Origin: an uncultured Verrucomicrobiota bacterium
GTDB lineage: Bacteria > Verrucomicrobiota > Kiritimatiellia > CAIKKV01 > CAITUY01
Assembly: GCA_964535015.1 (NCBI GenBank)
Contig: CAZHRU010000002.1
Span: forward strand, 2,215 to 66,214
Length of the DNA stretch: 64,000 nucleotides
Direction of reading: 5' to 3'
Shown: positions 3,727 through 34,397 of the stretch, piece after piece
How positions within the stretch are numbered: position 1 is the stretch's first letter
Layout: each line of letters starts with the position of its first letter
Made by a program: the position numbers and the translations under genes
The notes under the pieces: model-generated
Database searches by the model: none
Told to the model about the DNA's origin: nothing
Seen by the model: the letters and a program-made list of their open reading frames with translations, nothing else

Positions 3727-5880
3727 TCAACGGTACAACGCCGTCTGGGGACGACTCGTCCATGTGTTGTAGTAGCGCATGGCCAGCCGCCACCATGGCG
3801 ACAGCGCGGACTCCCGGAGGCGCCAGACTTGATGGTGCAGTTCCCCCACGGCTTCGGCATTCATCAGAATGGCCATCTGCTCCCGCCGATCCAGCGATGC
3901 GGGCCCTTTGGCCAGAAGCCGCTCCTGCAACTCCTTCAACCGGTTGGCACGATGCCCGGCCCCCTGCTTCCGCCGGAGTAACGAGCGATGCGACGCATTC
4001 ACGTACGGATCAAGAACCACCTGCATCAACCCGTAATGCGGCACCAACCAGTCCGGCGGCAACAGGTGCCGGCGTATCGCCCGCAGATTCTTAGCCAGAT
4101 GACGAACCACCGACGGCGGGTTGTTTTCAACCGGGATGCTGAACATGCCAACCCGCCTCAACCACCGCCCCACTCCGGTCATGCTTAACACCGCTGAAAG
4201 CGGAATGGACCCCATCAATCCAAACGTCACCGGGCTTAACCACCAGAAAAAAGCCGTGTTGATGCGGAAGGCCAGTAGCGCCCACGCCAACCCCACCAGG
4301 GTGTGCCCAAGGTGGGATTTGACGATCCCCTCCCAGTCCACCCCATCACCGGCATCCCGCGTCTGGGCACCCCACGGCACCTCACGCCCACTCAGGATTT
4401 CCATAACAAAACGGGTATTGAACAGCATCTGCACCGGCGCAAGCAGGGCCGACAAGATGTGCTCAATAACAAACCCGAGCAGGACCCGTGCCCCCCCCCC
4501 AAACGAACGACGTCGCTCCCTGTTCACCAGCGTCAACACCACCGCCAACGCCTTTGGCAACGTCAGCAACCCCAGTGTCACCGTGAACAACAGCAACGCC
4601 AAACGCCCGCCCCCAATGTCGAGGAACGACGAAAACCCCACATCGGAGTCGAACCGCATCGCCGCCCCCGAGGCCCAGTAAAGCCATCCGGCTATGGTCC
4701 CCAGCACCAGGAACGCCAGCCATAGGGGCGAGGCCAGATAGGACAAGATCCCCAACAGCAGGTGCAACCGGTTGATCGGATGGAACCCGCCCGCCGTGAT
4801 CAGCCACGCATGTTGCAGATTACCACGGCACCAGCGCCGGTCACGCCGCGCATGATCAATAAACGTGGGCGGAAGATTCTCATAACTCCCGCCCAGTTCA
4901 TACGCCATCCACACCTCGTAGTTTGCACGGCGCATCAACGCCGCCTCCACATAGTCATGGCTCATGAACCGCGCATTCTCCCCCGCCTCACCCGTCACCA
5001 TCGGCAACCCGCAATGCTCAATGAACGGCGCCACACGGATGATCGCATTGTGCCCCCAGAAATTGCCGCACCCCGCCTGCCAGAAGTTCAGTCCCGCCTG
5101 AAATACCGGACCGTACAATGTCCCGGCAAACTGCATCAACCGCGCAAAAAAGGTCTGCCCCTGGATCGGACTGGGCACCGTCTGAATGATCCCCGCCTGC
5201 GGATTGACTTCCATCATCTGAACCAACCGGACCAGCGTATCCGCATTGATCAGGCTGTCGGCATCCAGAACCACCATGTACCGGTACTTGCGGCCCCACC
5301 GTCGCAAAAAGTCGCTGATATTGCCGCTTTTCCGGTTCAGGGCCACATTGCGCTTCCGGTAAAAGATGCGCCCGAATCCCTTGACCTGCTTGCATAGATC
5401 AATCCATGCCACTTCCTCCTCGATCCATTTGTTGGGATCATTGGAGTCACTAAGAATGAACACGTCGAACCGCCCGATGAACCCGGAACGCACCAGATCC
5501 AGATACATCGTCCGAAGCCCCTCGTAAACACGGCTCACGTCCTCATTGTAAATCGGCACCGCAATCGCCGTCGCCGGAAGATCGTCAACCTTCGGCAGCG
5601 ACTCCGGCACCGTCCGCGACAAACTGAACGGATCACGCCTGCGCAACAGGATCAGGAACCCGCACAACGCCTGCACAAATCCAATCATGACCATGCCGAA
5701 CAGCGGAACGAACAGGACCAGGATCGCTTTCTCAATCCCCGTCATGCCTCCCCGCCACAGAATGTCAGCCATCACCCAGGTCGCCAGGCCCGTCATCACC
5801 ACCACAGTGGTAAAGAAGAAGACCTGACGACGCCAGGATCGGCGTAGCGGACTGATGGGAATGGTTCCAAGGGCACTCAT
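3727..5880 (-). CDS. opgH: Glucans biosynthesis glucosyltransferase H (OpgH/MdoH, GT2, polytopic)
   Basis: GT2 core motifs IAVPIYNED, VLDADSLI, QTVP and RRDRRWCRGNLQH, flanked by multiple TM segments. Start trimmed to ATG 5880 (MSALGTIPISPLRRSWRR..), 4 nt after the stop of the upstream gene. Confidence 0.88.
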   Translation of the reverse strand: MSALGTIPISPLRRSWRRQVFFFTTVVVMTGLATWVMADILWRGGMTGIEKAILVLFVPLFGMVMIGFVQALCGFLILLRRRDPFSLSRTVPESLPKVDDLPATAIAVPIYNEDVSRVYEGLRTMYLDLVRSGFIGRFDVFILSDSNDPNKWIEEEVAWIDLCKQVKGFGRIFYRKRNVALNRKSGNISDFLRRWGRKYRYMVVLDADSLINADTLVRLVQMMEVNPQAGIIQTVPSPIQGQTFFARLMQFAGTLYGPVFQAGLNFWQAGCGNFWGHNAIIRVAPFIEHCGLPMVTGEAGENARFMSHDYVEAALMRRANYEVWMAYELGGSYENLPPTFIDHARRDRRWCRGNLQHAWLITAGGFHPINRLHLLLGILSYLASPLWLAFLVLGTIAGWLYWASGAAMRFDSDVGFSSFLDIGGGRLALLLFTVTLGLLTLPKALAVVLTLVNRERRRSFGGGARVLLGFVIEHILSALLAPVQMLFNTRFVMEILSGREVPWGAQTRDAGDGVDWEGIVKSHLGHTLVGLAWALLAFRINTAFFWWLSPVTFGLMGSIPLSAVLSMTGVGRWLRRVGMFSIPVENNPPSVVRHLAKNLRAIRRHLLPPDWLVPHYGLMQVVLDPYVNASHRSLLRRKQGAGHRANRLKELQERLLAKGPASLDRREQMAILMNAEAVGELHHQVWRLRESALSPWWRLAMRYYNTWTSRPQTALYR

Positions 5881-5884
5881 TTGT

Positions 5885-6484
5885 TTAACGGCGGGTATAC
5901 AGGAACAACGCCACCAACAGGGCGGCAAAGACAAGCCACATAAACAGCGTCTTGATGATGGGGAACCGTTCCAGCGTTTCCATCGCCGACCCGGCCAGTT
6001 CAGGAATCAATCCACGGTCAAGGGGGCGCGGCACCATGCTGCTGACTTCCAGTTCAGGCCCCGTCTTGACCAATCGCGCGTGCAGAGTCTCCGAAAACCC
6101 CGGCGGCGCCTCCCGCGGGTTCAGAAACGCGTTCGGCCAGCGCATGGGCGCATCGCACAAATACAGCGCCAGATACGCCTCATCCATCGTCGCCGGCCGC
6201 CCCAGTTCGGGGCGTTGCAGCAGTTCCGCCATCCAACTGGCGATCATCGCCCGCGTCTCGTCAATCGCCAAGGTCGCCAGATTCTCGGCGTTCCCCGCCT
6301 GCCGTTCCAGCGCCCGCTGAAGAATCACCGCCGCCAGCCTCGCCCGATGGAGCCGGCTCGACACCCGGCAGGCACGAAGGTAGTTCTCAACCTTCTCAAA
6401 CGCCTCATCCCATTCCCCGGCCTTCTCCGGATTCCAGGACGGCAGTGCTATGGAGTCCAGTGGTACGTCCACGTTTCGGTGCAT
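5885..6484 (-). CDS. Hypothetical tail-anchored protein encoded between opgG and opgH
   Basis: 199 aa. The body is helical-looking and soluble, with a single C-terminal hydrophobic segment (IIKTLFMWLVFAALLVALFLYTRR). The start overlaps the opgG 3' end by 37 nt and the stop lies 4 nt before the opgH ATG. Confidence 0.6.
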   Translation of the reverse strand: MHRNVDVPLDSIALPSWNPEKAGEWDEAFEKVENYLRACRVSSRLHRARLAAVILQRALERQAGNAENLATLAIDETRAMIASWMAELLQRPELGRPATMDEAYLALYLCDAPMRWPNAFLNPREAPPGFSETLHARLVKTGPELEVSSMVPRPLDRGLIPELAGSAMETLERFPIIKTLFMWLVFAALLVALFLYTRR

Positions 6485-7986
6485 GGCACTCCATCCTTGC
6501 GCAGTTCCGCGCGCAGTTCAACCGCCGTTGCCGAGTCTTCCGCATACACATCAAACGCAATCCGCCACGTCCGGTTAAATGCATTGTACTCGTCAGACTT
6601 GGCCGACAGGTGCCCGCCGGTAACGCCCACCGATGCCTCCGGTTTCACCGCCCCCTCACCGGGCGGCGTGGGCCACGCAAACTCCAGCACAAATTTCCGG
6701 GCCCGCGGTTGCGGCGGTCCAAGGATAGCCCCCGATTTCATCGACACGACCCTTGCCTTCGGAGGCAAACTGTCGTTTTCGTTATACCAGACAATGTCAT
6801 AGGAGAACTCAGCCCAGTCCCCCGGCCCCAGCGCTTTGGCCGGCTCCCAGAACGCCACGATATTGTCATGGAACTCCGAATCCGTCGGAAGTTCCAGTAA
6901 CCGCACCGCCCCTGCTCCCCAATCCCCAACCGGCTTGATCCACCCTGATGGACGCCGGTGGTACGAACACTCCATATCCTGATAAGAACCAAATGAACGC
7001 TCACGCTGGATAAGACCAAACCCCTTGGGATTCTTGTCCTGGAATGCGCTGAAACGTAACCGGCCGTCGTTCTCCAACGGACGCCACAACCATTCGTTAT
7101 TCCCGTTGGCAATCAGCAGACCGTCGGAATCGTGGACCTCGGGCCGGAAGTCATCAAACCGCCTGGCATTGTTCTTGCCGAACCAATACATGCTGGTGAG
7201 CGGCGCAATTCCATAGTTGATCACATTGGTCCTGGCAAAAACCGCCACCCGTGTGTGCATAACGGTCTCCGCGCCCGGAACAATCACGAACGATGCCGCC
7301 CCCGCCACACTCGGACCATCGAATAGCCCGATCACCCTGATCTCCTTCCCGTCCTGACCGGGGCGATATACCCAGAAATCCTCAAACCGTGGAAATTCCT
7401 CAGGCACATTCACTCCACAGTTCACCGCCACCGCCCGCGAGGACAGCCCGTAAATCAGACCCTTTGGCAACGCCCGGAAATAACTCGCCCCCTGGAAAAC
7501 AATCAGTTCATCAAGATACTCGGTAGTGTTCAGCGGGTAATGAATCCTGAACCCCGAGAATGTCAACCCGCGTACGTCCATCCAACTGAGTTTAACCAGC
7601 GGCCCGTAGTCGAACAGCGACCGGTCGAACCCGAAATCCTGCACGTTCTCGCCATCCACCAAATGCATGTAGATCTGGTCGGTCTGACCACCGGCCGGAT
7701 GAAAGAACTGGAGTTGGAAGGGAAGACGCTCTCGCCGCCACACCGCCTCGCGTGTGTCGTAACGGATATCGCGCATCTGGTCATAGGAGAGTTCCCTCAG
7801 ACGCGCCGACAACGGCCGCCGCATATCCTTGTAGGGGGCCGTGGCCATATCACGGGCCATCCCCTTGATACGCTCAAAATCAGGCGCACGCTCCCGCTCC
7901 GCCGATGACACATTCCCGGGGTCTACGAACAAAAAAGCGCCGATGACAAAAACCAATCCCTGCGTCAAAGCTCTATTCATAGACAT
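6448..7986 (-). CDS. opgG: Periplasmic glucan biosynthesis protein OpgG/MdoG family
   Basis: 512 aa with a Sec-type signal (MSMNRALTQGLVFVIGAFLFV). Segments LSYDQMRDIRY, FQLQFFHPAG and GASYFRA are MdoG-like. It is adjacent to opgH. Confidence 0.88.
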   Translation of the reverse strand: MSMNRALTQGLVFVIGAFLFVDPGNVSSAERERAPDFERIKGMARDMATAPYKDMRRPLSARLRELSYDQMRDIRYDTREAVWRRERLPFQLQFFHPAGGQTDQIYMHLVDGENVQDFGFDRSLFDYGPLVKLSWMDVRGLTFSGFRIHYPLNTTEYLDELIVFQGASYFRALPKGLIYGLSSRAVAVNCGVNVPEEFPRFEDFWVYRPGQDGKEIRVIGLFDGPSVAGAASFVIVPGAETVMHTRVAVFARTNVINYGIAPLTSMYWFGKNNARRFDDFRPEVHDSDGLLIANGNNEWLWRPLENDGRLRFSAFQDKNPKGFGLIQRERSFGSYQDMECSYHRRPSGWIKPVGDWGAGAVRLLELPTDSEFHDNIVAFWEPAKALGPGDWAEFSYDIVWYNENDSLPPKARVVSMKSGAILGPPQPRARKFVLEFAWPTPPGEGAVKPEASVGVTGGHLSAKSDEYNAFNRTWRIAFDVYAEDSATAVELRAELRKDGVPCTETWTYHWTP

Positions 7987-8044
7987 TGTCGTTTATGAAA
8001 CCCCCCGTTTAGACTCGCACAGGGACCCCCCTGAATCGGAGGTA

Positions 8045-8074
8045 TTTATAATCCGATCCGATGGCCATTAGCAA
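8045..8074 (-). promoter_or_regulatory. Candidate sigma70-type promoter upstream of opgG
   Basis: Minus strand reads TTGCTA (8074..8069), an 18-nt spacer, then TATAAA (8050..8045), about 60 nt upstream of the opgG ATG. The spacer is long, so this is weak. Confidence 0.25.
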
Positions 8075-8095
8075 GCCTAAAGCCCCTGCCGACGA

Positions 8096-10180
8096 TCAAT
8101 CATGAACCGTGTAGGGTACGATGCACAACTCCCGCAACATGAGATCAATACCTTTCTCCGGGTCCGGACTCCCGATCAGCACCACCTCCCGGATTCCCGT
8201 CAGCCCCGGCGTCGCAGGCAGCGGAATTCTCAACTCCGCTTCCGCCGCCCCCGTGTTCTCAAACCGAAATGCAATCAGATTGGCCACACGCCGACTACCG
8301 CTCTCCCGGTCCTCAAACGCCAGTGTCGCCCCCACCGCCGAACCGTTATTGCAGTACCGGATCCGCAACTCACCGTCCGATGGCGATACCCCGCCCAACC
8401 GTCCGGGAAACGTCCAGGTAATCGCGCCTTTCTTCCCTGGGGCGCCCCACAACCGATACGCACCTTTCACGGCCTGCCCCTGGATACCGCCGCCACCCGG
8501 CGACCAAACCACCGCCTTTGCCTCCACCCCCAACAGGTCCACCCGCTCACCCCACGGATACACCCGCGCCCAATCCCCCGCAAACCCCCGCTCATCAAGA
8601 TAGCGACTCATCGCCACCGACCCCCGCCCAATCCCCCCAAGGATCAATGACATCACATGCGCCGCCGTCTGACACTCCACCCGTTCCCCGGTATCCACCC
8701 TGACCCCCTCCCACGGGCCGTGCCTCGTAAACAATCCCGAAATACCCGACCACTGCTCCCCGAGAAACTGCTCGACCTCTTCCGGTAGAATCGAATACGC
8801 CACCCCCACTGTGTACAACGACGGGGCATTGGTAACTCGTGGCTTCGGGTCAACCGCCAGTTCCGGAACCCCTGCCCGCCCCGTATACTCGATACCATTG
8901 CCGGTGTAGGACTCCGTCAGGAACCCGGGTAACCGGTGTTGACGCGAATAATCAAGATTGATCCGCACCGCGTTCTCCAGGACCGCACGCCACCCGGGAA
9001 CCGTTAACTCCCTCATAAACAACGACAATCCAAACGCCTGGAATGCCGACCCCTCCCATGGCGCCAGGGTGAAAACATGCCGGCCTCCCTCCGTAATCCT
9101 GCCTTTGATCCAGAACCCGAGGTTGCGCAGTGCGTCCAAAGGCATCCCATAACGGATCACCACAAACTGGGTGGGCCCCCGGAACTCGTTGACCAGATAA
9201 TCCGAATACCCCGCCTGCCACTCGCCGCCATCAACCGCCCACCCCACAAACCGCCGGTCAGACGCGTTCCATCCAAAACGGAACAGTCCACGCTTCGCAT
9301 CGTACAGGTATTCATAACCCGGCCGCTGGGCTTCAATGAAGAACTCCAACTTTTCGCGGATTCGCCCTGCCGTCGCGGTGTCCCGCACCCCCGGATCCAT
9401 TAGCGCGCCCTGCGTCTTTGCAACGGACGCCGCCAAGTTCGCGTTATCCCCATAGATGATCTGCAACACCCGCCGGTCAAGAATCGCCAAAATCCTGGCC
9501 CGCATTTCCGCCCTGTCATACACCGCCAGTTCACCGGTGAATCCACCCTCCCCGTAATCCCCCTCCCGAACAATGTCCGCCCCCTCGTCGCCCTGCCACG
9601 CCTTCAGCCATCCGCGCTGGCTCAGGGCCCGCCACACCGCTTCGCCTTCCACAGGCCCGAATGCCTCACGGAACTCGCTCTTGCTTGCCACCGAGGCCAG
9701 CGGGGCTTCCCTACCCTTGGCCCCAAACCCCATGAAGTTGCACAACAAACCACGATCACTTAACTGTGGGTCACGTTGATCCGCCAGCAGACTATCCGTC
9801 AGGTGCTCCAGCCGCACCAGTGCTTCCGCCCGCGACACATACGGCGAATCCGCGTACCCGCCCGCCACTTGCGCAAGCAATTCCATCCATGCCCCGATCG
9901 CCGTCAACTGCGTGAATCCGCGTAACCGTAATCCGGTCTTCGGATCGTCATTCCACCCCTCGCGCGGATACCCTGATTTCGGCTCAATCAATCCATGCTC
10001 GGGACGGAGATACTCCATCGCATTGGCCAGCAACCGCGTCATATGGGTATGGCGCGCATTCACCGTCGAAAAAACACACCGCTTGCTACGCGTCTCCCCG
10101 GCCGGCGCACGACCATGACTGCCCACGCTCACACACCCGGCGACCACGACCGCAATCCCCACCGCCATCAACCCTGTCAT
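8096..10180 (-). CDS. Lipoprotein with a six-hairpin (alpha/alpha)6 glycosidase-like body and a C-terminal beta-sandwich-like domain
   Basis: Start trimmed to ATG 10180, giving MTGLMAVGIAVVVAGC (lipobox VAGC) 7 nt after the stop of the GH94 gene. Segments GYPREGWNDDPKTGLRLRGFTQLTAIGAWMELLA and APWEGSAFQAFGLSLFM resemble the glucoamylase-like/DUF3131/GH144-type superfamily. This is recollection, not a search. Confidence 0.7.
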   Translation of the reverse strand: MTGLMAVGIAVVVAGCVSVGSHGRAPAGETRSKRCVFSTVNARHTHMTRLLANAMEYLRPEHGLIEPKSGYPREGWNDDPKTGLRLRGFTQLTAIGAWMELLAQVAGGYADSPYVSRAEALVRLEHLTDSLLADQRDPQLSDRGLLCNFMGFGAKGREAPLASVASKSEFREAFGPVEGEAVWRALSQRGWLKAWQGDEGADIVREGDYGEGGFTGELAVYDRAEMRARILAILDRRVLQIIYGDNANLAASVAKTQGALMDPGVRDTATAGRIREKLEFFIEAQRPGYEYLYDAKRGLFRFGWNASDRRFVGWAVDGGEWQAGYSDYLVNEFRGPTQFVVIRYGMPLDALRNLGFWIKGRITEGGRHVFTLAPWEGSAFQAFGLSLFMRELTVPGWRAVLENAVRINLDYSRQHRLPGFLTESYTGNGIEYTGRAGVPELAVDPKPRVTNAPSLYTVGVAYSILPEEVEQFLGEQWSGISGLFTRHGPWEGVRVDTGERVECQTAAHVMSLILGGIGRGSVAMSRYLDERGFAGDWARVYPWGERVDLLGVEAKAVVWSPGGGGIQGQAVKGAYRLWGAPGKKGAITWTFPGRLGGVSPSDGELRIRYCNNGSAVGATLAFEDRESGSRRVANLIAFRFENTGAAEAELRIPLPATPGLTGIREVVLIGSPDPEKGIDLMLRELCIVPYTVHD

Positions 10181-10187
10181 CCACCCG

Positions 10188-13100
10188 TCACATCTCATTA
10201 CTCCACTCCCTCCGCACTGCCACCACCCGCAGATCACCGCGCGGCTCCGCCAGATCATCCGGCAGGCGGACCTTGTTGTTCTCCAACCGCGCCCCCACAA
10301 CACCTTCCAGCGCCTGTCGCACCATCCAGGCCGCCGCCCCCGTATAACCGTTCCAGATCATCCGCCCGGGTTCAACCTCCGTCAGGTAATCCGCCGCCTG
10401 CTTGTTCGGCTGCCCTCCATAGACATCAATCCGGTCCTCCCCCGTATGATCCAATGGCGAGATCTTCCGCCATAACCGGATCGCCGCCGCGCGATAGGTT
10501 GCCGCCCCCTCTCCGTCCCCCGCCGCCCGTCGCGCCTCCGCCAACAACCGCGCCGCCCCCACCAACCATTGCACCCCGTGACTGTACATCCCGTTCTCGC
10601 GCACGCCTTCCGGATACTGACTGACCCGCCCAAAGTGCGGACGGGTCCCTGCGTGAATCGCCGGCCATCCGAGCAACACCACCAACTCCCGCTCCAGAAT
10701 ACCCAGCGCGGTATCAAATCCCCGGCGGGCACGGTCAGCATCCGCTCCCGCCATCACCGCCCAGGCGACCGTCAACGCATCCACCTCCCACGCCCCCCCT
10801 CCCGCCACCCCAATCTCCGTCCCGTCATCATGGATGGCCCGCAAATACCGATCCCCACGCCACGTCGCCTCCAGCGCCTGCTTCAACCCCTCCAACCACC
10901 GCCGGTACTCCGCCGCCACGCCCGCCCCGCGCCGTCGTTCAATATGCGGCATGAACTCGCGCAACACGTACGCCAGGAAGAATCCCAGCCACACACTCTC
11001 CCCGCGCCCCTCACTGCCAATCTCATCAAAACTGTCATTCCAATCGCCCGTGCCGATCAGCGGCAACCCATGCCGCCCCATCCGCCGCCGCCGCACCAGA
11101 TCCAACGCCCTCATCACGTGATCAAACACCGTCTCGACCACCGGCGACCGCAACGGGAATAACCCCATCCCCCCCTTGCCTTCCGGCAACGGCAACAACG
11201 GCGTTTCCGTGTCCAGATAGGGAACCCGTTCATCGAGAATCGTCTCGTCCCCCGCCATCCGCACATACTCCGCCACCCCCCACCCCAACCACAGCAGGTT
11301 GTCGGACGCATGCGATCTCGACGCCAACCCGGTCTTGCCATTCATCACAAAGAACCAGTGCACCGTGTCGCCCTGGATGAACTGCTGACCCGCGTGGAGC
11401 AGCAATTGCCGCCGGGCCAACCGCGGATCCGCCCAGATCAGGTTGACCGCATCCTGCAGTTGATCCCGATACCCGAATGCGCCACTGGCCTGGTAAAACC
11501 CTTTCCGCGCCCACAAACGCTCCGCCAGCGCCTGGTACTTGAGCCAGTACAAAAGATGATCGAACCCGCGATCCGTTGTATCAACCGTCACCGTCCGGCT
11601 ATACCCGTTCCACCACCGACGCGTGGCGTCCAATTGCGCATCGGCATGATCGGACCGCGCATACACCGACATCCATCGCTCCGCCTCGGCACTCGAGTCC
11701 GCTTGCCCCAGTATCACGACCACCGTGCGCACCTCCCCCGGCGGCACTTCCAGTCCCACCCGTAACCCCGCCACCGGCCGATCATCGCCATCGTCCCCAC
11801 TCATCGCCCCCTCGACACCCTCAACCCACCTCGGATGCGCCACACTCCGTCCGCCACCAAAGAACTCGCCCCGCCGCATCACCACCGCATCCGGCGCCGG
11901 ATTCATCGCCGCGAACGCGGGCCCGCTCCGGAATGTGTTACGCGGATTCTCAAAAAGCACCCCATCCCCATCCGCCGACAACCACCGCCGCAACACACCC
12001 GCATGTTCCGGACGGTTGGCCAGCACCATCTCGAAATACGCCGCGCATTGGAAATGCCGTGCCCGCCCGCCCTCGTTCCGCACTCTCAGCCGGTAGACGC
12101 CCAACGGCTCGTCCGGCGGCACAAACACCGTCAGCTCCGTGGCAAGCGTTCCCTGCCGCATGTGGAATACCGCGGAACCGTCCACACGAAACTCTGTCTC
12201 GTATCGCGCCCCGCGTTCGCGCAGCGGCTCCCATGTCGGCGAGTACCACGCCCTTTCATCCTGATCGAATAGATACAGGGCCTCGCCCGGCAGTTCGCGC
12301 GTAACCACATCCGCCCAGTCCGGCGTCAACCGGTTCTGCTGCGAATTGCCATTCGCCGAGGTGTGCAATCCGCGCTGGGTCACCGCCATGACGTGCCCCA
12401 TGGCATTCGCCATGGTGTGATCAAATGCACGCGGCGTGAAAGGCGTCAGCACCCGCAGAACCCGCCCCCCATCCTCATATCGCGTATACGGTCCCGTCAC
12501 GCCCCCGGGACGCTCACCATGACCCAGCCGCACCGCAACGGCACCGCACGTTGCCGCCGGAAAGGGTGTCCCGCACCCGGTTCCATCCCGCCACCGCCGC
12601 ACCTCCGCCTCGGCCTCAGCCATGGACCCCGCACATCCCACCCGCAACCGCACCGTCTCCTCCGCACCCGGCGCCACCTCAACCCGCAACGCCATGCACC
12701 CGATCGCGTCCAGCAACGGACAGGGCCCCACGCTTTCCGGGGCACGCCACCGGTTCTCGCGCACTGCCTCTGGCGCCCACACCGTCCCCGCCCTCCCGAT
12801 AAACTCAACCCGGGCCATCTGAATCCCTTCCGGCTTCCTGTCCGCCGCCAGAAATCCAACCTGGTGCGTCTGTCGGTGTAACGCCAGAACCGCATCCATC
12901 TCCGACCGGTACGACACCTCGGGGAACAACCGGTTGTACTGCGTGTGATTGCGGTCGGCCTCCGCACTGTTGAGTACCCATTCCAGATACGGAATCACCC
13001 GCAGGGACCTGCCCAGCACCCCGGGATTGCGTACTGTGATCACCCACGACTCCACCGCCCGGTCCTCGTCCGGCAATTCAATCCGGATGACCACCTCCAG

Positions 13101-16100
13101 TCCCTGCACTTCATGCCGCATCGTCAGCGCCTGCTCATCGCCCGACATCGCCGGCAACGTCCCAACCTCACCGGGATAATTCCCCGCCAGCGGCCAGCAG
13201 CTCCATGGGCCGGATGCGCCCTCCTGCCGTTCCGCCAGGAACAACGCGCGTCCCGCCGGATCACGCCCATCATAGGAACGCCGATGCACATCGAATCCCC
13301 GTTCCAGGTACTCGGCCCGCATTCCTCCGTCCCGGGCCAGCGTGAAGGAATAGACATCATTAACCAGTTTCAACGATGCGGGCCGCCCGGCGCGCCGCCT
13401 CAACACCCGCCCGCGCCACACGCCTGCCACAACCGCCACAGCAGCCACCACCCCCCCCGCTTCCAACCCCAGGACCACGCCCGACTGTTGCCAGACCTGC
13501 TCCACCCAGGACACCCCCCCCAACTTGATGGCCTGGGATTGCGCCCAGACTCGATCCCAAACGGCACCTGCCGGAATGTAGAACGGCAAGAGTAACGGCG
13601 CCCATGTCGTGAACCGCTTGACCCCCTCAGGGAAACACCGCGACGTCGCATCCGCCCCAAGGAACCGCGCCACCCTGGCATCCAATCGTTCCATCCCGAT
13701 GAAACTCAGGTTCACCAGCGTCGCCACCCGCAGCCCCATGTGGTCAAGCCAGATCAGCACACGGAAAGCGTCGTACGCCAGCACCCACATGAAGACCGTC
13801 ACACTCCACGCCTCAAACCCCTCGCGGCCAAGCCACAGACTCTGACCAATGCAACACAGGGTGCGAATACCCCCATCCTGATTATACCAGGTCGGCACCG
13901 GCATCTGACGGAGGAAGGTGAAGATGATCGGCGCCATCCACAACCCCCATCGCAACACGAAGATCGTCCCTTCCGCCAACTCCGTGACCCCGTCCCGCGT
14001 GAACAACCTCCGCAACGGTGCCATCTCCCGCTGGAACACCGCCATCAAGGCCGACCGGTTGATCGCGAACAACCATGCCGCCACGCCCCACGAAATCACC
14101 CCCGCCAACGCTTCATTCCAGAGCAGGCGCGCGCCGCCCGTGTAGTGCCCCAGATCCAGGAACCCCCACCGGCTTAACAACGGGTACACCTCGTACGGCT
14201 TCGCGGCCGTCCCAAACCCCAGATACACCGCCAGTTTCCCGGTAATCACCGGCGTCTGCGCCGCATCCAGATAGAAACCAAGGGCCGCCCCCACCAACCC
14301 GCCCAGCATGGCCTTGACCGCGTAGAGCCGCCACCCGCCCACAACACCCCGCCCGGCCCCCCCCAGGACCGCGTCACGCAGGAAACTGATTCCCGCATAC
14401 GCCGCCACCCCCGCCGCAAACCCCCACCCCGCCCGCACCGGCATCGCCCACGTGATAAACTCGTGCGACCACCCCCACGCCGCCATGACTCCAACCACGG
14501 CCCCTCGCCACACCAGCGAATACCGCCGATAGTTCCCCGCCAGACGCCGCACAAAGGATGGACTTCCGTCGAAACTCTCTATCAACGTTTTCGCGAACGG
14601 GAAAACCACGCCTCCAGCCACCGCCCATGTCACCAGCGGGGCCGCCGCTACAGACTGCTTCCACCACTCAGACCCGAGCACCAGACCACCCGCCTGCAAC
14701 AGTCCCATCACCCAACCGCCAAACCACATTCCCTTGCTCGCCCCCGTCCGCGCATACCCCGTAAGTTCAAGCCGCCCATGATGGGCACCCCCGCGCACCG
14801 CATCCAGCATCAGACCCGTCAGCAGATACGCTTCCGCCCACAACGCCGCCTGCGAAAGCACGGTGGCGATTATCGCCACCGGCACACGCCACAACCCCGG
14901 CACATTCCATCCCCCGGATCCTCCGTCAGCCACCCATGGCGATAGCACCACCGCCACCGCCACCAACGGCAATACCCACAGATCAACACCGCGCGCCTTC
15001 ACGACTTTCCAGGACCGGAGGCAAACCCAACACACCAGCAGGTTGACCCCCGCCAGCACCACAATCCTCCCCAACGCCAACCCGAGGGGCCCCGACCCCA
15101 CCCGTAACATCAATTCCCGGTTCGGCAACGCCAGCAACAATCCGAAAAGAAAAGGTATCGCCACCAGCCGAAGACTTGCGGAAACGCTTAACGAACGCCC
15201 AGCCACCCCCAGTTTCCGAACCGTGCCCGCCAGGTAGATCACCCAGAACGTAACCGCGCCAAGACGGCTGATCTTCGCCAGATCCACCCCTTGCTCCGCC
15301 GCTGTCCAGATCGGCACGTCACTGGCCGCCGTCGCCAGCACGCCCGAAACCAGGGCATGGCACAACGTCTCGCCTGCCGTCGGAAACCGCCCGGCCCGCA
15401 CCCTTGTGAGTATCCCGGCAACCAGCACCCCTGACAACATCACCACCAACGGGGTAAACGCCGACTGCCCCACCAGGGTCGTCCCGTCACTGACGATTCC
15501 CATCACCCCGCCGATTCCCGCCACAACCGCCAACCCAACCCCCAACGCCCACCCAACCCGGCACGGCATCCCGGCCCCGGTCTTTCGTCTCGCTAACAAG
15601 GCCGCCACTCCGGCCGCCAACAACGCCACCAGCCCCATCGCCACCCACCGCCCCCATCCCCCCGCCAACACCGCATACCACACAGGCCACCCGACAAATT
15701 CCGCCTGCACCCGAAGCACGCCGGATACCGGGGCCCCTCCTCCGGAATGCTGAAGGGCCAATACCCCTTCCTTCCACTCCCCGATCCGATTCCAATCCAA
15801 AATCACTTCACCCTGCCGCCGACCAGCCCGTAACACCAGCGGCACCGATTGAACCCCAACCGAACCTTTGATTTCCAATGTCGCCAGAATCGGGAGTTCC
15901 GCGCCAGATTCCAGAGTCAAGTGATAGCGCAGGACATGCGCGCCTTTTGCAGGTGAATCAACCCTCTCCGCATTCGCCCATACCCCGGCCCCGCCACCCG
16001 GCGGTATCATGAAGCGAAACTGCCAGACCCCACCTTCCCCTTGGTTCAATGAAGCCTGCCCGCCCTTCATGTCAAACGTCCCCTGCCCCCCCGCCCCACG

Positions 16101-16184
16101 AAGAAAACTATCCGCCTGGCAAACAGAACCAGTCAACACTCCCAAAGCAATAATCAGGACAAACACTCTTCCCATCCAATTCAC
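10188..16184 (-). CDS. Giant polytopic membrane protein with a C-terminal GH94 (cellobiose/beta-1,2-glucan phosphorylase, Cgs C-terminal-like) region
   Basis: 1998 aa. Signal peptide (MGRVFVLIIALGVLTGSVCQADS), a ~140-aa extracytoplasmic domain, then residues ~166-925 almost entirely hydrophobic helices. From ~938 there is a GH94-like region with GYRDQLQD (nt 11451..11468), GDTVHWF, GTGDWND (nt 11034..11048) and ENGMYSHGVQW. The start is GTG 16184 or ATG 16175. Confidence 0.85.
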   Translation of the reverse strand: MNWMGRVFVLIIALGVLTGSVCQADSFLRGAGGQGTFDMKGGQASLNQGEGGVWQFRFMIPPGGGAGVWANAERVDSPAKGAHVLRYHLTLESGAELPILATLEIKGSVGVQSVPLVLRAGRRQGEVILDWNRIGEWKEGVLALQHSGGGAPVSGVLRVQAEFVGWPVWYAVLAGGWGRWVAMGLVALLAAGVAALLARRKTGAGMPCRVGWALGVGLAVVAGIGGVMGIVSDGTTLVGQSAFTPLVVMLSGVLVAGILTRVRAGRFPTAGETLCHALVSGVLATAASDVPIWTAAEQGVDLAKISRLGAVTFWVIYLAGTVRKLGVAGRSLSVSASLRLVAIPFLFGLLLALPNRELMLRVGSGPLGLALGRIVVLAGVNLLVCWVCLRSWKVVKARGVDLWVLPLVAVAVVLSPWVADGGSGGWNVPGLWRVPVAIIATVLSQAALWAEAYLLTGLMLDAVRGGAHHGRLELTGYARTGASKGMWFGGWVMGLLQAGGLVLGSEWWKQSVAAAPLVTWAVAGGVVFPFAKTLIESFDGSPSFVRRLAGNYRRYSLVWRGAVVGVMAAWGWSHEFITWAMPVRAGWGFAAGVAAYAGISFLRDAVLGGAGRGVVGGWRLYAVKAMLGGLVGAALGFYLDAAQTPVITGKLAVYLGFGTAAKPYEVYPLLSRWGFLDLGHYTGGARLLWNEALAGVISWGVAAWLFAINRSALMAVFQREMAPLRRLFTRDGVTELAEGTIFVLRWGLWMAPIIFTFLRQMPVPTWYNQDGGIRTLCCIGQSLWLGREGFEAWSVTVFMWVLAYDAFRVLIWLDHMGLRVATLVNLSFIGMERLDARVARFLGADATSRCFPEGVKRFTTWAPLLLPFYIPAGAVWDRVWAQSQAIKLGGVSWVEQVWQQSGVVLGLEAGGVVAAVAVVAGVWRGRVLRRRAGRPASLKLVNDVYSFTLARDGGMRAEYLERGFDVHRRSYDGRDPAGRALFLAERQEGASGPWSCWPLAGNYPGEVGTLPAMSGDEQALTMRHEVQGLEVVIRIELPDEDRAVESWVITVRNPGVLGRSLRVIPYLEWVLNSAEADRNHTQYNRLFPEVSYRSEMDAVLALHRQTHQVGFLAADRKPEGIQMARVEFIGRAGTVWAPEAVRENRWRAPESVGPCPLLDAIGCMALRVEVAPGAEETVRLRVGCAGSMAEAEAEVRRWRDGTGCGTPFPAATCGAVAVRLGHGERPGGVTGPYTRYEDGGRVLRVLTPFTPRAFDHTMANAMGHVMAVTQRGLHTSANGNSQQNRLTPDWADVVTRELPGEALYLFDQDERAWYSPTWEPLRERGARYETEFRVDGSAVFHMRQGTLATELTVFVPPDEPLGVYRLRVRNEGGRARHFQCAAYFEMVLANRPEHAGVLRRWLSADGDGVLFENPRNTFRSGPAFAAMNPAPDAVVMRRGEFFGGGRSVAHPRWVEGVEGAMSGDDGDDRPVAGLRVGLEVPPGEVRTVVVILGQADSSAEAERWMSVYARSDHADAQLDATRRWWNGYSRTVTVDTTDRGFDHLLYWLKYQALAERLWARKGFYQASGAFGYRDQLQDAVNLIWADPRLARRQLLLHAGQQFIQGDTVHWFFVMNGKTGLASRSHASDNLLWLGWGVAEYVRMAGDETILDERVPYLDTETPLLPLPEGKGGMGLFPLRSPVVETVFDHVMRALDLVRRRRMGRHGLPLIGTGDWNDSFDEIGSEGRGESVWLGFFLAYVLREFMPHIERRRGAGVAAEYRRWLEGLKQALEATWRGDRYLRAIHDDGTEIGVAGGGAWEVDALTVAWAVMAGADADRARRGFDTALGILERELVVLLGWPAIHAGTRPHFGRVSQYPEGVRENGMYSHGVQWLVGAARLLAEARRAAGDGEGAATYRAAAIRLWRKISPLDHTGEDRIDVYGGQPNKQAADYLTEVEPGRMIWNGYTGAAAWMVRQALEGVVGARLENNKVRLPDDLAEPRGDLRVVAVRREWSNEM

Positions 16185-19184: not shown

Positions 19185-20393
19185 TCACCCTCTGCCCCCC
19201 TCCACTTTCCACTCCGACGGCAAATAGCACACCCCCTCAAACCGCTTGTCCGAATCCACGCCGATCGCAAACGCATGATCAAGCCGGTGATAGTTCGACC
19301 GGTGATCCGCCGAATGCACCGAGAATGAAAACAAATATGTCCCCGCCGCCAGGTCCAGCACCGGCAACCGTAACACCACCGACCCCGCCCCGCTTAACGC
19401 CGGAATCAACATCCCTGCAATCTGGGTATTGCTCCCATGCACCAGCCGCCCTTGTTCATCCGACACACTGAACCCGAATACCGACGGACCCACCGGCATC
19501 TTCGCCTCATACTTCACCCGCACATTCAACGCCTTGCCGCTCCCGAAACTCCGGCAGTCCTTCCCCTGGTCATCAAAAAACTCCGCCCCCGTCAGCACAA
19601 CCTCCCGCGTCCCCCATTCCCGCCGTAACTCCCCGCCCGCCTGCCCGCGTGAAAACGTTTCATACTGCCCAATCACCGCGCCAGGGGCCCCATGCCCCTT
19701 GATCTGACCGTGATCAAGAAACAGGATCGTGTCGCTGACCGATTGGATCGTATTCAGGTCGTGCGAGATGATCAGCATGGTCTTGCCCATTTCGCGGAAC
19801 TGCTCCATCCGCTTCAGACACTTCCGCTGGAAGGCCGCGTCGCCCACCGCCAGCACCTCGTCCACCAGCAGAATGTCCGGGTCCACCTCCACCGCCACCG
19901 CAAACCCGAGCCGCACATACATCCCCGACGAATAGTGCTTCACCGGCTCATCCAGGAACGGCCCGATGTCCGCGAACGCGACAATCGCGTCGAATCGCTG
20001 TTTCATCTGCTCCCGCGAAAGCCCCATGATCGCCCCGGCCAGATATACATTCTCCCGGCCCGTCAGGTCCGGATGAAATCCCGCCCCCAATTCCAGCAAC
20101 GAGGATATCGTCCCCGATGTCGTGATCCGCCCCTCGGAGGGACTCATCGTCCCGGCAAGCAACGCCAACAGCGTACTCTTGCCCGCCCCGTTGGCCCCGA
20201 TGATCCCCAGCGTGGAGCCCCGACGGACCTCAAAATCAATACCCTTCAACGCCCACAACTCGCGCGTCCCCCGCCCGCCCTTCCGCAACAGGTCCATCAC
20301 CACGGACTTCAGCGTCCGGGTGGCCGAATGCCGCAACCGGAACCGCTTGCTTACTCCCTGCACCTTGATGGCCACATTGTCCGTCATCATCAT
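19185..20393 (-). CDS. wzt: Polysaccharide ABC exporter ATP-binding protein (Wzt/TagH-like) with a C-terminal glycan-binding-type domain
   Basis: Start trimmed to ATG 20393 (MMMTDNVAIKVQGVSKRF), adjacent to the permease stop. Walker A GANGAGKST, signature YSSGMYVRLGFA, Walker B ILLVDEVL. A ~150-aa beta-rich C-terminal extension resembles Wzt_C. Confidence 0.88.
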   Translation of the reverse strand: MMMTDNVAIKVQGVSKRFRLRHSATRTLKSVVMDLLRKGGRGTRELWALKGIDFEVRRGSTLGIIGANGAGKSTLLALLAGTMSPSEGRITTSGTISSLLELGAGFHPDLTGRENVYLAGAIMGLSREQMKQRFDAIVAFADIGPFLDEPVKHYSSGMYVRLGFAVAVEVDPDILLVDEVLAVGDAAFQRKCLKRMEQFREMGKTMLIISHDLNTIQSVSDTILFLDHGQIKGHGAPGAVIGQYETFSRGQAGGELRREWGTREVVLTGAEFFDDQGKDCRSFGSGKALNVRVKYEAKMPVGPSVFGFSVSDEQGRLVHGSNTQIAGMLIPALSGAGSVVLRLPVLDLAAGTYLFSFSVHSADHRSNYHRLDHAFAIGVDSDKRFEGVCYLPSEWKVEGGRG

Positions 20394-20395
20394 CC

Positions 20396-21175
20396 TCACA
20401 ACTCGTCCGCAAACCCCTTTTGCAACCCTTGAAAAACAACCACCCCAGCCCCGCACACCAACCACGACACCAGCAACGACGGCCCCCAAAGCGCCACCGA
20501 CGGCAACGCCTCGCCCATCAACGCCGCGCGGTAGAGCGCCAGCAACCCTGTCATCGGATTGAGATAGAACAACTGGTGAATCACCGGGTTGCTGAACTTC
20601 TGGGTCACCATCTCGGGACTGTAGATCACCGGCGTCAGGAAGAACCACGCCATGGTGAACACACCCACCAGGTGCTGCACGTCACGGAAGAACACATTCA
20701 CCGAGGACAGCGCCAGACTCACCCCCGTGCATAACGCCACCTGGGTAACCATCGCCAGCGGCAACCATGCCAGCAATCCGAACGGCACCCCCACCATCTT
20801 GAGATAGACCACCACAATGACCAGCGACAACGCAAAGTTCACAAAATTCGCCAGCACCATGGACAGCGGCAACAGCACCCGCGGAAACGCCGCCTTCTTG
20901 ACCAGGTTCGAATTCCCCAGGATGGCGTTGACGGAATCCCCGAGACTCATCGCGAGATACTGCCAGACAAAAATACCGGTCACCAGCAATGGCAGTGACA
21001 TGGAGAACCGCATGATCCCAAGGAAAACGGCGTAAATCACAATCAGGAACACCGGCCCAAGCAAGGTCCATAGGAACCCCAGCACCGACTCCTTGTATCG
21101 GATCTTGATGTTCCGGACCACCAGCATGGCCAGCAGTTCCCGACGATTCACAATATCGCTAAGCAGTTTCAACAT
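20396..21175 (-). CDS. wzm: ABC-2 type polysaccharide exporter permease (Wzm/TagG-like)
   Basis: 259 aa with about 6 TM segments. N-terminal RELLAMLVVRNIKIRYKESVLGFLW is typical of ABC-2 permeases. It lies directly upstream of the ATPase gene. Confidence 0.85.
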   Translation of the reverse strand: MLKLLSDIVNRRELLAMLVVRNIKIRYKESVLGFLWTLLGPVFLIVIYAVFLGIMRFSMSLPLLVTGIFVWQYLAMSLGDSVNAILGNSNLVKKAAFPRVLLPLSMVLANFVNFALSLVIVVVYLKMVGVPFGLLAWLPLAMVTQVALCTGVSLALSSVNVFFRDVQHLVGVFTMAWFFLTPVIYSPEMVTQKFSNPVIHQLFYLNPMTGLLALYRAALMGEALPSVALWGPSLLVSWLVCGAGVVVFQGLQKGFADEL

Positions 21176-23991: not shown

Positions 23992-24070
23992 TAGGCCGCG
24001 CAATCAGGACTTGTTCCCCCATGCCCTATCTGCTAATAAAAGCAGGCACTATTTTTACGGAATACTATCT

Positions 24071-30857: not shown

Positions 30858-30897
30858 CTCGGCCTCAACATCTGAAAGTCGTTAAATTGCTTCATGC

Positions 30898-30925: not shown

Positions 30926-30961
30926 GAGCCACTATTTCTAAGGGTTTCAGGCGGGAAAGCA

Positions 30962-34367: not shown

Positions 34368-34397
34368 AAAAACGATTCGCGATTCACAACGCAACGC

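Follow-up and report, generated by a model that had tools for sequence, protein, structure and literature searches.

ORF listing of the window, i.e. the whole 64,000-nt stretch of DNA analysed, yields five open reading frames on the minus strand, all of them present as the original prediction had placed them:

10188..16184, minus strand: giant protein of 1998 aa with signal peptide, periplasmic beta-sandwich, 19-TM domain and cytoplasmic GH94 module (ORF; Pfam GH94 supersandwich and catalytic domain)
8096-10180 (694 aa), or 8096..10198 with ATG 10198 (700 aa), minus strand: lipoprotein (lipobox VVAG/C)
7987..8095, minus strand: 109-nt intergenic gap, the junction of module A (giant and lipoprotein) and module B (OpgG-X-OpgH), which are found apart elsewhere
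6448..7986, minus strand: OpgG (GH186/MdoG family) with Sec signal peptide (PF04349, E=2e-167)
5885..6484, minus strand: X, 199 aa, with a C-terminal TM helix, conserved between OpgG and OpgH
3727..5880 from ATG (longest ORF from TTG 5934), minus strand: OpgH (GT2 glucan synthase, short type; NF003958)

The giant starts either at GTG 16184 (1998 aa) or at ATG 16175 (1995 aa), the latter as in the public protein P0123, which is 100% identical to it. The 700-aa form of the lipoprotein matches the length of the public protein P0003. Giant and lipoprotein are separated by 7 nt or, with ATG 10198 as start of the lipoprotein, overlap by 11 nt, X and OpgH are separated by 4 nt, and the 109-nt gap lies between lipoprotein and OpgG. 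The spacings reported originally are thus reproduced except for OpgG and X, which overlap by 37 nt rather than lying within 4-7 nt. A weak promoter-like site had also been proposed at 8045-8074 in the gap (TTGCTA-N18-TATAAA), but a consensus scan of the gap called neither promoter nor terminator, with no excess over shuffles. The gap could house a promoter, and co-transcription of the two modules is putative. The shared orientation is weak evidence for an operon, because the minus strand carries all real genes between 441 and 22497, including CorA, AroB and RuvX and then CoaX, NadC, an S49 peptidase, Wzt and PheS.

The OpgG and OpgH of the window are genuine, as predicted, with clear matches at orthologue level. 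Over its full length OpgG shares 34% identity with E. coli OpgG, and the OpgG family has been shown to consist of beta-1,2-glucanases (PMC10514313). OpgH scores 818 bits against the NCBIfam MdoH equivalog NF003958 (cutoff 419), contains GT2 Pfam domains and is 40% identical to residues 137-820 of E. coli OpgH; the 136 N-terminal residues that form a cytoplasmic domain in the latter are missing. X has no match in Pfam, NCBIfam or PDB searches and ends in a TM helix, in agreement with its first description as a tail-anchored protein of unknown family. It is, however, no incidental ORF but accompanies OpgG and OpgH as a conserved partner, since it lies between them in 18 metagenome loci and in the close relative L006 (identity 44-85%), with an X/OpgG overlap of 34-37 nt across the X-bearing loci. 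By position, X resembles opgI of the Rhodobacter sphaeroides opgGIH operon (cited in PMC10514313). No similarity to the E. coli OpgH N-terminal domain was detected by hhalign (Prob 3%).

The giant membrane-bound GH94 protein

15690..16109, minus strand: aa 26-165, extracytoplasmic CBM-like beta-sandwich (AlphaFold strands over 23-165)
13389..15689, minus strand: aa 166-932, polytopic membrane domain of ~19 TM helices (AlphaFold helical model, pLDDT mostly 80-93)
10188..13388, stop codon included, minus strand: aa 933-1998, GH94 phosphorylase module (GP1-GP3 equivalents, without the Rossmann-like insert; phmmer)

Homology to Cgs starts at aa 933, and the phosphorolytic domain of Cgs is the nearest relative of the GH94 module. 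In phmmer searches the A. tumefaciens Cgs 8RF9, its closest solved relative, is matched with E=1e-111 (about 36% identity), and cellobiose phosphorylases with E about 1e-36. Similarity of the module to LpSOGP is only marginal (E=0.007). The catalytic and phosphate-binding residues are all invariant: D1717, the catalytic Asp of DWND that Cgs shares, R1573/D1574/Q1577/D1578 and H1869 are found in 15/15 family members.

A signal-peptide-like helix (ending ...VCQA/D) precedes the N-terminal beta-sandwich, whose best Foldseek matches are CBM11, CBM27 and CBM16 modules at weak E-values (from 5e-4). This type of domain occurs in five tandem copies in one homologue (P0133) and is missing from many Verrucomicrobiota homologues. 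The positive-inside pattern is N-out and C-in, with KR-rich loops alternating among the 19 TM helices and RGRVLRRRAGR directly after the last. Taken together with the signal peptide and the outside beta-sandwich, this places the GH94 module in the cytoplasm, so that the giant, like Cgs, is an inner-membrane protein with a cytoplasmic GH94 domain.

The membrane domain has no Pfam match at E<=10, no PDB profile match and no credible Foldseek match, a feature beyond the original reading. Similarity to the Cgs N-terminus or to OpgH was not found, nor was an internal repeat. The N-terminal membrane region is common to 394 cluster representatives and carries the invariant motifs IESFDGS, WYNQDG, LDHMGLRVATLVNLSF and PEGxKRF; GH94 is the only Pfam domain in the ~19 full-length homologues. 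Transport by this domain is putative and cannot be inferred from homology.

Whether the giant is simply a Cgs has to be considered, because the closest match to its GH94 module is the one in Cgs and its homologues are annotated by JGI as 'cyclic beta-1,2-glucan synthetase'. This assignment is refuted to near certainty. Neither Pfam nor NCBIfam detects a GT domain; aa 1-930 show no profile similarity to the N-terminal GT84 and cyclase region of Cgs; and Foldseek returns no GT match for the model. Since the AlphaFold model of aa 166-932 is all helices except one beta-hairpin, there is no space for a GT-A or GT-B fold. The giant, without a GT84/GT2 or cyclase domain, is also shorter (1998 aa versus about 2800-3000 aa), with 19 TM helices unrelated to the 6 of Cgs. 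Its architecture and invariant motifs are conserved in hundreds of clusters and therefore it is not a decay product. The idea of a Cgs-type GH94 protein without polymerase is accordingly upheld.

A secreted enzyme related to the beta-1,2-glucanase clan

8561..10063, minus strand: aa ~40-540, (alpha/alpha)6 catalytic domain (candidate residues D245, E332, F380, E423, H508)
8099..8548, minus strand: aa 545-694, CBM-like C-terminal beta-sandwich (AlphaFold strands 555-689)

The AlphaFold model of the lipoprotein (pLDDT 88) finds its best Foldseek match in EeSGL1 (GH192, PDB 8XUJ; E=7e-19, TM 0.80), followed by the Cgs cyclase domain (1e-15), GH189 (3e-13), GH162 and GH144; the top 19 PDB matches all belong to the beta-1,2-glucanase/Cgs-cyclase clan. 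EeSGL1 leads the sequence matches, too (profile E=4e-10), although the identity is only about 15%. The predicted (alpha/alpha)6 fold is thus borne out, whereas the suggested GH144/DUF3131 membership is not, as neither PF10091 nor PF11329 is matched in Pfam. Homologues fall into at least 491 clusters, every one 'hypothetical' and without Pfam assignment. Compared with EeSGL1, the lipoprotein has an extra N-terminal segment and the C-terminal beta-sandwich, which resembles CBM11, CBM16 and CBM29 in Foldseek (E about 1e-4) and has no detected sequence homology to the beta-sandwich of the giant.

The candidate catalytic residues are invariant in 32 sequences. In the profile alignment with EeSGL1, D245 pairs with D149, the candidate-base position, and E332 with the general acid E221 (roles from PMC12102758); the general-acid Glu, Phe and Tyr of the SGL clan (GH144, GH162, GH193, GH194) are all present. 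Aligned by hhalign to the Cgs cyclase (Prob 91%), E332 pairs with the acid/base Glu E1356, E423 with the nucleophile E1442 and H508 with the helper H1536 (roles from PMC10834661). E423 corresponds to Ser in EeSGL1, and the position of E1400 in GH189 is Gln here. The lipoprotein thus belongs to a separate, unnamed family with a fold nearest the inverting GH192 and apparently GH189-like catalytic positions, the Glu and His having gone unremarked in the earlier reading. Judged from alignments at only 15-23% identity, these residues would favour transglycosylation, including cyclisation, over simple hydrolysis.

The relatives of both proteins raise the question of a synthase that works without a GT. 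In such a system, GH94 running in reverse would use glucose-1-phosphate to extend a beta-1,2 chain, the 19-TM domain would extrude it as in BcsA or OpgH, and the GH189-like enzyme would cyclise or size it in the periplasm. Among characterised proteins, the nearest relatives of the pair are indeed the two non-GT modules of Cgs, the GH94 domain and the cyclase, and E423 and H508 align to the GH189 nucleophile and helper His, although this equivalence depends on the low-identity alignments. The cyclase-like enzyme is here a separate exported protein and therefore acts in another compartment than in Cgs.

Conservation of the two modules

The five-gene order is not a conserved unit but a junction of two independently conserved, autonomous modules. 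It is confined to a narrow clade that comprises the window and, as its nearest relatives, L006 and L085; the junction is kept in three independent assemblies with tight spacing. The giant/lipoprotein gene pair is widespread across phyla; giant and secreted SGL-like enzyme are adjacent and co-directional in 45/67 evaluable genome loci, from Planctomycetota, Verrucomicrobiota, Kiritimatiellia, Lentisphaerae and Desulfobulbales. OpgH does not occur within 10 kb in any of the 45. Cultured carriers of the pair include Tundrisphaera sp. TA3 and Desulfopila sp. IMCC35006. Module B is found in 18 metagenome loci, most of them without module A. The source organism, a Kiritimatiellia-like bacterium, has the genes of OpgG, its small partner and OpgH placed beside the pair.

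No third gene recurs beside module A, any other family being present in at most 11/84 loci. The pair is surrounded by housekeeping genes (coaX, nadC, ruvX, pheT), and neither a regulator nor a TonB receptor nor a beta-glucosidase accompanies it. The lipoprotein family is associated with beta-1,2-glucan genes in three independent ways: through the TM-GH94 giant; through a soluble 1,2-beta-oligoglucan phosphorylase (SOGP_N 9e-57) directly upstream of the homologue in L048, a Nitrospiraceae MAG; and through OpgG directly downstream in L075, a gammaproteobacterial MAG, as in the window clade. A PF10091 glucanase-type gene lies nearby in L104.

These neighbourhoods bear on the GT-free synthase in both directions. 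The housekeeping context without catabolic partners and the 45 loci lacking a nearby OpgH are in its favour, but in L048 a catabolic enzyme takes the giant's place, and in the window the true synthase, OpgH, adjoins, so that a second one would be redundant. The pair might equally serve to feed on foreign glucans, e.g. cyclic glucans from other bacteria, by import and phosphorolysis, in which case the adjacency to OpgG-X-OpgH would be functionally meaningless. This accords with the autonomy of the pair, mostly unlinked to OpgH, with its carriers, largely polysaccharide-degrading PVC bacteria of lakes, peat and sludge, and with the catabolic nature of known SGL/SOGP clusters (PMC3960220, PMC12102758). 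However, none of 80 loci has an outer-membrane uptake component, regulator or beta-glucosidase nearby, the junction is retained in the three assemblies, and L075 has a second, independent lipoprotein-OpgG adjacency. We consider such feeding unlikely.

Possible fate of the glucan

It was originally proposed that all five genes form one pathway, in which OpgH polymerises, GH94 shortens nascent chains on the cytoplasmic side, as its counterpart does in Cgs, and the periplasmic trimming falls to lipoprotein and OpgG. The five genes are co-directional with short gaps, and chain length is under control of the GH94 domain in Cgs (PMC10901819). OpgH-type GT2 synthases, however, extrude the chain as it grows through a channel of their own directly to the periplasm, so that a separate cytoplasmic GH94 would probably not meet it, judging from the BcsA-like architecture cited in PMC10901819. 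The large conserved membrane domain of the giant would also be left without a role, and the gene order is limited to a narrow clade. Such an integrated pathway is very unlikely, and length control of the OpgH product by a cytoplasmic GH94 is unlikely; within the proposed division of labour, recycling by GH94 fits better.

In vitro, the GH94 1,2-beta-oligoglucan phosphorylase does build beta-1,2-glucan from Glc1P (PMC3960220). By our own estimate, net synthesis in the cell would be unfavourable without extra energy coupling. A high Pi/Glc1P ratio, as in the cytoplasm, disfavours net synthesis by phosphorylases, and no phosphorylase is known to us to serve as synthase of an envelope polysaccharide. 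We consider a GT-free synthase unlikely.

We tentatively prefer, at somewhat less than an even chance, the reading that two independent beta-1,2-glucan modules meet here in a lineage-specific junction, module A serving retrieval. The secreted SGL-clan enzyme, lipid-anchored in the window clade, would cleave or rearrange periplasmic beta-1,2-glucan; the chain or oligosaccharide would pass through the 19-TM domain of the giant; and the fused cytoplasmic GH94 would degrade it phosphorolytically to glucose-1-phosphate, starting at the non-reducing end, with the high Pi/Glc1P ratio of the cytoplasm providing an inward pull. That the giant has a 19-TM domain of its own and, in the window clade, also a periplasmic beta-sandwich indicates that substrate would cross via the giant. 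The gene content, the identities of the domains, the preserved catalytic residues, the topology pattern and the synteny statistics are shown above, whereas the beta-1,2 specificity, the transport through the membrane domain and the direction of flux that retrieval entails are our inference.

Catabolic clusters combining endo-glucanase, transporter and GH94 phosphorylase are already known (PMC3960220, PMC11842490). The SOGP clusters of Listeria innocua (Lin1839) and Lachnoclostridium phytofermentans share the scheme proposed for module A, with endo-glucanase outside, transport, and GH94 phosphorolysis inside, and a true SOGP adjoins the lipoprotein-family gene in L048. They differ in that SOGP works with an ABC importer, whereas the giant's phosphorylase is Cgs-type and fused to a membrane domain, and module A lacks a beta-glucosidase. 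Several points weigh against retrieval: the context of the pair suits a constitutive function in the envelope better than a catabolic locus, the beta-sandwich taken as a hint of substrate capture is missing from many homologues, the putative GH189-like Glu and His favour transglycosylation, and the giant's membrane domain is without any known relative. Turnover of OPGs in model bacteria is, to our knowledge, not an established process.

The original interpretation is thus partly supported and the observation itself confirmed; a search of the accessible literature found no account of the arrangement, in keeping with its presumed novelty. Given a genome of a few thousand genes, two beta-1,2-glucan modules are unlikely to be neighbours by chance. 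In module B, OpgH would polymerise and extrude the beta-1,2 chain, with X as its membrane-anchored accessory, and OpgG would act in the periplasm, so that osmoregulated periplasmic glucan is made and processed. In the window clade, module A may then turn over, recycle or size-limit the cell's own OPGs.

Gene layout and the OpgG, X and OpgH proteins

As originally predicted, five consecutive genes were recovered as open reading frames (ORFs) on the minus strand, from 16184 down to 3727. The first two, encoding a 1998-aa protein (the giant) and a 694-aa exported enzyme (the lipoprotein), are referred to as module A, and the last three as module B.

Genes of the locus
10188-16184, minus strand: giant; ORF with GH94 supersandwich and catalytic domains (Pfam/NCBIfam)
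8096-10180 (or 10198), minus strand: lipoprotein; ORF, no Pfam/NCBIfam family
6448-7986, minus strand: OpgG; ORF with MdoG match (Pfam/NCBIfam)
5885-6484, minus strand: X, 199 aa; ORF, no Pfam/NCBIfam family
3727-5880 (or 5934), minus strand: OpgH; ORF, MdoH equivalog above cutoff

The genes had been described as separated by overlaps or gaps of 4-7 nt, apart from one gap of 109 nt. Reading of the sequence retains the 109 nt between lipoprotein and OpgG, the 4 nt between X and OpgH, and, as one option, 7 nt between the 3' end of the giant (...EWSNEM-TGA) and the lipoprotein ATG, the other being an 11-nt overlap; the overlap of OpgG and X, however, is 37 nt. Between the five genes, neither promoter nor terminator was called by a consensus scan, with regional counts the same as in shuffles, and the weak promoter-like site proposed for the 109-nt gap was not recovered. 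The shared orientation says little, because all credible genes from CorA (441) to PheS (22497) lie on the minus strand in a run that is housekeeping apart from the five glucan genes. Its content is CorA, a 208-aa ORF, AroB, RuvX, the glucan genes, CoaX, NadC, an S49 peptidase, a Wzt-type ABC ATPase and PheS, and GC skew stays strongly negative (-0.13 to -0.37) along the whole run. An NCBI MAG protein (P0123) matches the giant at 100% identity, and among genomes the closest match is a Kiritimatiellia MAG (L005), with 86% over the lipoprotein.

Three genes upstream of the giant is the Wzt-type polysaccharide-export ATPase (19185-20648, minus strand), which has a carbohydrate-binding Wzt_C domain; the order Wzt-NadC-CoaX-giant is kept in one relative (L001). 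Farther along, a 1223-aa protein combines a TMEM260-like O-mannosyltransferase domain with TPR repeats (23969-27640, plus strand). Three successive GT4 glycosyltransferase genes (30785-34367, plus strand) are followed by a B12-binding radical SAM gene (34398-36242, minus strand); the genes at 30785-36242 may form a separate glycan or lipid-modification cluster. Beyond them lie a 1779-aa protein of cadherin-like and Big_9 repeats (36547-41886, minus strand) and a HEAT-repeat protein (41883-42767).

OpgH and OpgG are genuine. OpgH scores 818 bits against NF003958 (cutoff 419), carries the GT2 domains PF13632 and PF00535, and is 40% identical to residues 137-820 of E. coli OpgH, whose N-terminal cytoplasmic domain is missing here. 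OpgG matches PF04349 with 558 bits over its full length (36-510), is 34% identical to E. coli OpgG, and begins with a hydrophobic export signal. X, called unknown and tail-anchored in the original prediction, indeed consists of a soluble part of about 170 residues followed by a C-terminal transmembrane helix, with no relatives detected in Pfam, NCBIfam or the PDB outside the OpgG-OpgH gene position. The idea that X is the split-off N-terminal domain of an E. coli-type OpgH was not upheld and is retained as no more than a lead, since the two share a short motif only (PELEVSSMVPRP versus PEAKRSSMFPDP; Prob 3%, not significant). Residues 139-152 of X form an invariant motif, GPELEVSSMVPRP, akin to PEAKRSSMFPDP of that E. 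coli domain at a level that is not statistically significant. In PMC10514313, with reference to Cogez 2002, R. sphaeroides is described as carrying opgI between opgG and opgH and requiring it together with opgH; X occupies the corresponding gene position.

A GH94 phosphorylase fused to a membrane domain

The giant comprises a signal peptide, a periplasmic beta-sandwich, a domain of 19 transmembrane (TM) helices (aa 166-932) and a GH94 module (aa 933-1998). The predicted GH94 assignment is borne out by matches to PF06165 (206 bits) and PF17167 (195 bits), and a phmmer search of PDB sequences matched the synthase of cyclic beta-1,2-glucan (Cgs) from A. tumefaciens (8RF9) in the GH94 part only (E=1e-111), followed by cellobiose and chitobiose phosphorylases. 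The catalytic Asp of the DWND motif (D1717), R1573 and H1869 align with residues of Cgs and cellobiose phosphorylase, and 15/15 full-length homologues retain D1717, R1573, the RDQLQD motif and H1869 without change; in RrCGS the GH94 catalytic residue is D2528 (PMC11842490). We conclude that the GH94 module is of the Cgs type, has its catalytic residues intact and is predicted to face the cytoplasm. Its nearest homology to the Cgs domain and its gene neighbours suggest that it would be specific for beta-1,2-glucan.

The likeness to Cgs, which combines GT84, a GH189 cyclase and GH94, is confined to this C-terminal phosphorylase domain. Neither Pfam nor NCBIfam detects a GT84/GT2-like glycosyltransferase domain in the giant, and an hhalign comparison of aa 1-1260 with 40 Cgs homologues, taken over their N-terminal 1750 aa, found similarity from aa 933 only, which is the start of the GH94 module. 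The AlphaFold model of aa 1-1000 (pLDDT 78) contains a signal helix, a beta-sandwich (23-165), about 19 membrane helices and one beta-hairpin, with no Rossmann-type sheet and no glycosyltransferase match by Foldseek. PF10091, present in all of the approximately 100 Cgs matches, is also missing from the giant. With no glycosyltransferase or cyclase domain found, an ordinary Cgs is ruled out and the GT-less character noted earlier is confirmed. Whereas the GH189 cyclase of Cgs resides in the same polypeptide, a cyclase-like enzyme is here separately encoded and exported. Databases leave the giant unnamed or label it 'cyclic beta-1,2-glucan synthetase', a misleading label that the locus analysis corrects.

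The membrane domain has no recognizable kin in the searches made. Neither a Pfam scan at E<=10 nor a profile search of the PDB yielded a hit, Foldseek gave no credible match to the helical domain, relationship to the TM/GT region of Cgs or to OpgH was rejected (hhalign Prob <=0.2% for both), and an internally duplicated transporter was dismissed as hhalign found no internal repeat. Loop charges alternate cleanly, with RGRVLRRRAGR directly after the last helix; by the positive-inside rule, the N-terminus would lie outside and GH94 in the cytoplasm. More than 60 polar or aromatic residues of the domain are invariant, including the motifs IESFDGS (inner face), WYNQDG, LDHMGLRVATLVNLSF and PEGxKRF. 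An exhaustive search recovered 394 clusters at 50% identity with this domain, the full-length members being about 1750-2250 aa; the mere two matches to the N-terminal 1000 aa in a k-mer-prefiltered search are therefore a prefilter artefact. In about 15 complete homologues, GH94 domains are the only Pfam domains.

The N-terminal beta-sandwich, the only part of aa 1-1000 matched by Foldseek (weakly, to carbohydrate-binding modules), is accessory: five tandem copies precede the membrane domain in one homologue (P0133, 2651 aa), and many Verrucomicrobiota homologues lack it (e.g. P0264, P0268 and P0274). Its homology to the C-terminal beta-sandwich of the lipoprotein was unsupported (Prob 2.5%).

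The exported partner enzyme

The window protein carries a lipobox (...IAVVVAG/CVSV; pattern [LVI][ASTVI][GAS]C after the signal helix), which is shared by only about 15 of its 120 best homologues. Since the rest have ordinary signal peptides, the family as a whole is exported. The AlphaFold model (pLDDT 88) consists of an (alpha/alpha)6 domain and a C-terminal beta-sandwich, and the first 19 PDB matches by Foldseek are all beta-1,2-glucan enzymes, being SGL clan members or the Cgs cyclase, which agrees with the predicted glycosidase-like fold. The best is EeSGL1/GH192 (E=7e-19, TM 0.80), and others are the cyclase domain inside Cgs, the TiCGS cyclase/GH189, TfSGL/GH162, and CpSGL and XcSGL/GH144. 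The more specific proposal of a GH144/DUF3131-type enzyme fails, because neither PF10091 (Glycoamylase) nor PF11329 (DUF3131) matches; no Pfam family was found at E<=0.01, and none is precomputed for the 120 homologues. The lipoprotein is an exported enzyme of the beta-1,2-glucanase clan, in a family of at least 491 clusters at 90% identity.

The clan is defined by residues that in XcSGL are E239 (general acid), F286 and Y367, while EeSGL1 has D149 as candidate base and E221 as general acid (PMC12102758). In the Cgs cyclase/GH189, E1356 acts as acid/base and E1442 as nucleophile, the latter with H1536 next to it in a retaining mechanism, and E1400 is also noted (PMC10834661). The lipoprotein is about 15% identical to EeSGL1 over about 290 residues (phmmer E=5.7e-7, profile E=4e-10), and the profile alignment pairs invariant D245 and E332 with D149 and E221, respectively. 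E332 also pairs with E1356 of TiCGS in an hhalign comparison with the Cgs cyclase family (Prob 91%). By sequence alignment rather than superposition, F380 follows E332 by 48 residues, versus 47 in XcSGL, and the invariant Y456/Y463 lie at the distance expected for the clan Tyr. Furthermore, E423 pairs with the nucleophile E1442 (LPGFLTES versus VPWGISES) and H508 with H1536 (hmmsearch E=0.002; hhalign Prob 91%), and hhalign places Q381 at the E1400 position. EeSGL1, in contrast, has Ser at the position of E423, a difference that argues for a family distinct from GH192. In alignments at 15-23% identity, the family appears to have a fold nearest to an inverting glucanase, yet to carry the residues on which retaining transglycosylation by GH189 depends.

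Synteny, direction of glucan flow and significance

The two proteins of module A are tightly coupled genetically. Among 80 genome loci anchored on the lipoprotein family, 67 have enough upstream sequence, and in 45 of these the giant lies upstream on the same strand, directly adjacent in about 30. Two further loci, from a gammaproteobacterial MAG (L015) and a Haliea sp. MAG (L032), have a divergent giant-like gene downstream on the opposite strand (about 34% identity in the GH94 part, 45% in membrane motifs). Carriers include Planctomycetota (Gemmataceae, Isosphaeraceae, Thermoguttaceae, Pirellulaceae), Verrucomicrobiota, Kiritimatiellia/Pontiellaceae, Victivallales, Desulfobulbales and some gammaproteobacterial MAGs, and cultured ones are Tundrisphaera sp. 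TA3 and Desulfopila sp. IMCC35006. In the lipoprotein-anchored loci, no third gene was found to accompany the pair repeatedly. In a planctomycete (L104, GCA_020630975.1), the gene after the giant encodes a 1001-aa protein without Pfam match, and the opposite strand carries a PF10091 'Glycoamylase' (GH144/GH189-type) gene about 9 kb downstream.

Conservation of the whole five-gene neighbourhood, as initially proposed, is not what relatives display. Within the lipoprotein-anchored genome loci, OpgG-X-OpgH lies downstream in L006 only, which shares RuvX-AroB-CorA with the window. X, used as anchor in 18 metagenome loci, immediately follows OpgG in all 18, with OpgH after it in 12, wherever tblastn-detectable; the lipoprotein is upstream in just one (L085), and in another (L092) 8.5 kb of unrelated DNA takes its place. 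The separate occurrence of the modules in the surveyed loci implies that they are autonomous and were joined in one narrow clade. The lipoprotein family is tied to beta-1,2-glucan by two other neighbours. In a MAG of Nitrospiraceae, a soluble GH94 phosphorylase of the SOGP type, 1125 aa long (L048:6082-9459, plus strand; SOGP_N, SOGP_2nd and SOGP_4th domains), stands in for the giant directly upstream of the lipoprotein-family gene, and in a gammaproteobacterial MAG an OpgG homologue (L075:12225-13787, plus strand; 38% identity) lies directly downstream of such a gene, with no giant or OpgH within 10 kb.

We infer that the membrane domain would serve as the path by which beta-1,2-glucan moves from the periplasm to the GH94 site or in the opposite direction. 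Inward flow is favoured because phosphorolysis thermodynamics favour breakdown, because the presence of SOGP in place of the giant in L048 indicates catabolism, and because known clusters of SGL, transporter and SOGP work on this principle. In the window clade, the adjacency to OpgG-X-OpgH suggests that module A may turn over the cell's own osmoregulated periplasmic glucans (OPGs). The housekeeping context without a regulator and the GH189-like residues of the lipoprotein count against such retrieval, and leave room for a route that makes periplasmic and possibly cyclic beta-1,2-glucan independently of a glycosyltransferase, in which the phosphorylase polymerises from glucose-1-phosphate, the 19-TM domain exports as a translocon of a new class, and a GH189-like transglycosylase cyclises outside the cytoplasm; we consider this outward route unlikely. 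The earlier idea that GH94 controls the length of the OpgH product in the cytoplasm, in an otherwise OpgH-based synthesis, fits least, since OpgH extrudes its own chain and the membrane domain of the giant would be left without a role.

Beta-1,2-glucans have roles in osmoadaptation, symbiosis and virulence. To our knowledge, only two routes of their synthesis (OpgH and Cgs) and a handful of degrading enzyme families are known. The literature found, which covers the Cgs structure, GH189, GH192-194 and SOGP but not subscription journals, holds nothing on a membrane-fused GH94 or the secreted family of the lipoprotein. We rate the locus as a variant on known beta-1,2-glucan systems, in which the phosphorylase-coupled membrane domain could be a categorically new component. 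It points to a secreted, as yet unstudied family of enzymes in the beta-1,2-glucanase clan and to a GH94 phosphorylase fused to a large membrane domain without known relative, both spread over Planctomycetota, Verrucomicrobiota, Kiritimatiellia, Lentisphaerae and some Proteobacteria and Desulfobacterota, groups whose periplasmic glucans have, as far as we know, hardly been examined. Should the membrane domain indeed carry glucan towards or away from the phosphorylase fused to it, this would represent a new mode of sugar-polymer transfer across a membrane; with inward flow, phosphorolysis of the cargo would drive carbohydrate import, with the giant as the first such importer. The adjacency to OpgG-X-OpgH offers a testable handle on whether bacteria recycle their periplasmic glucans.
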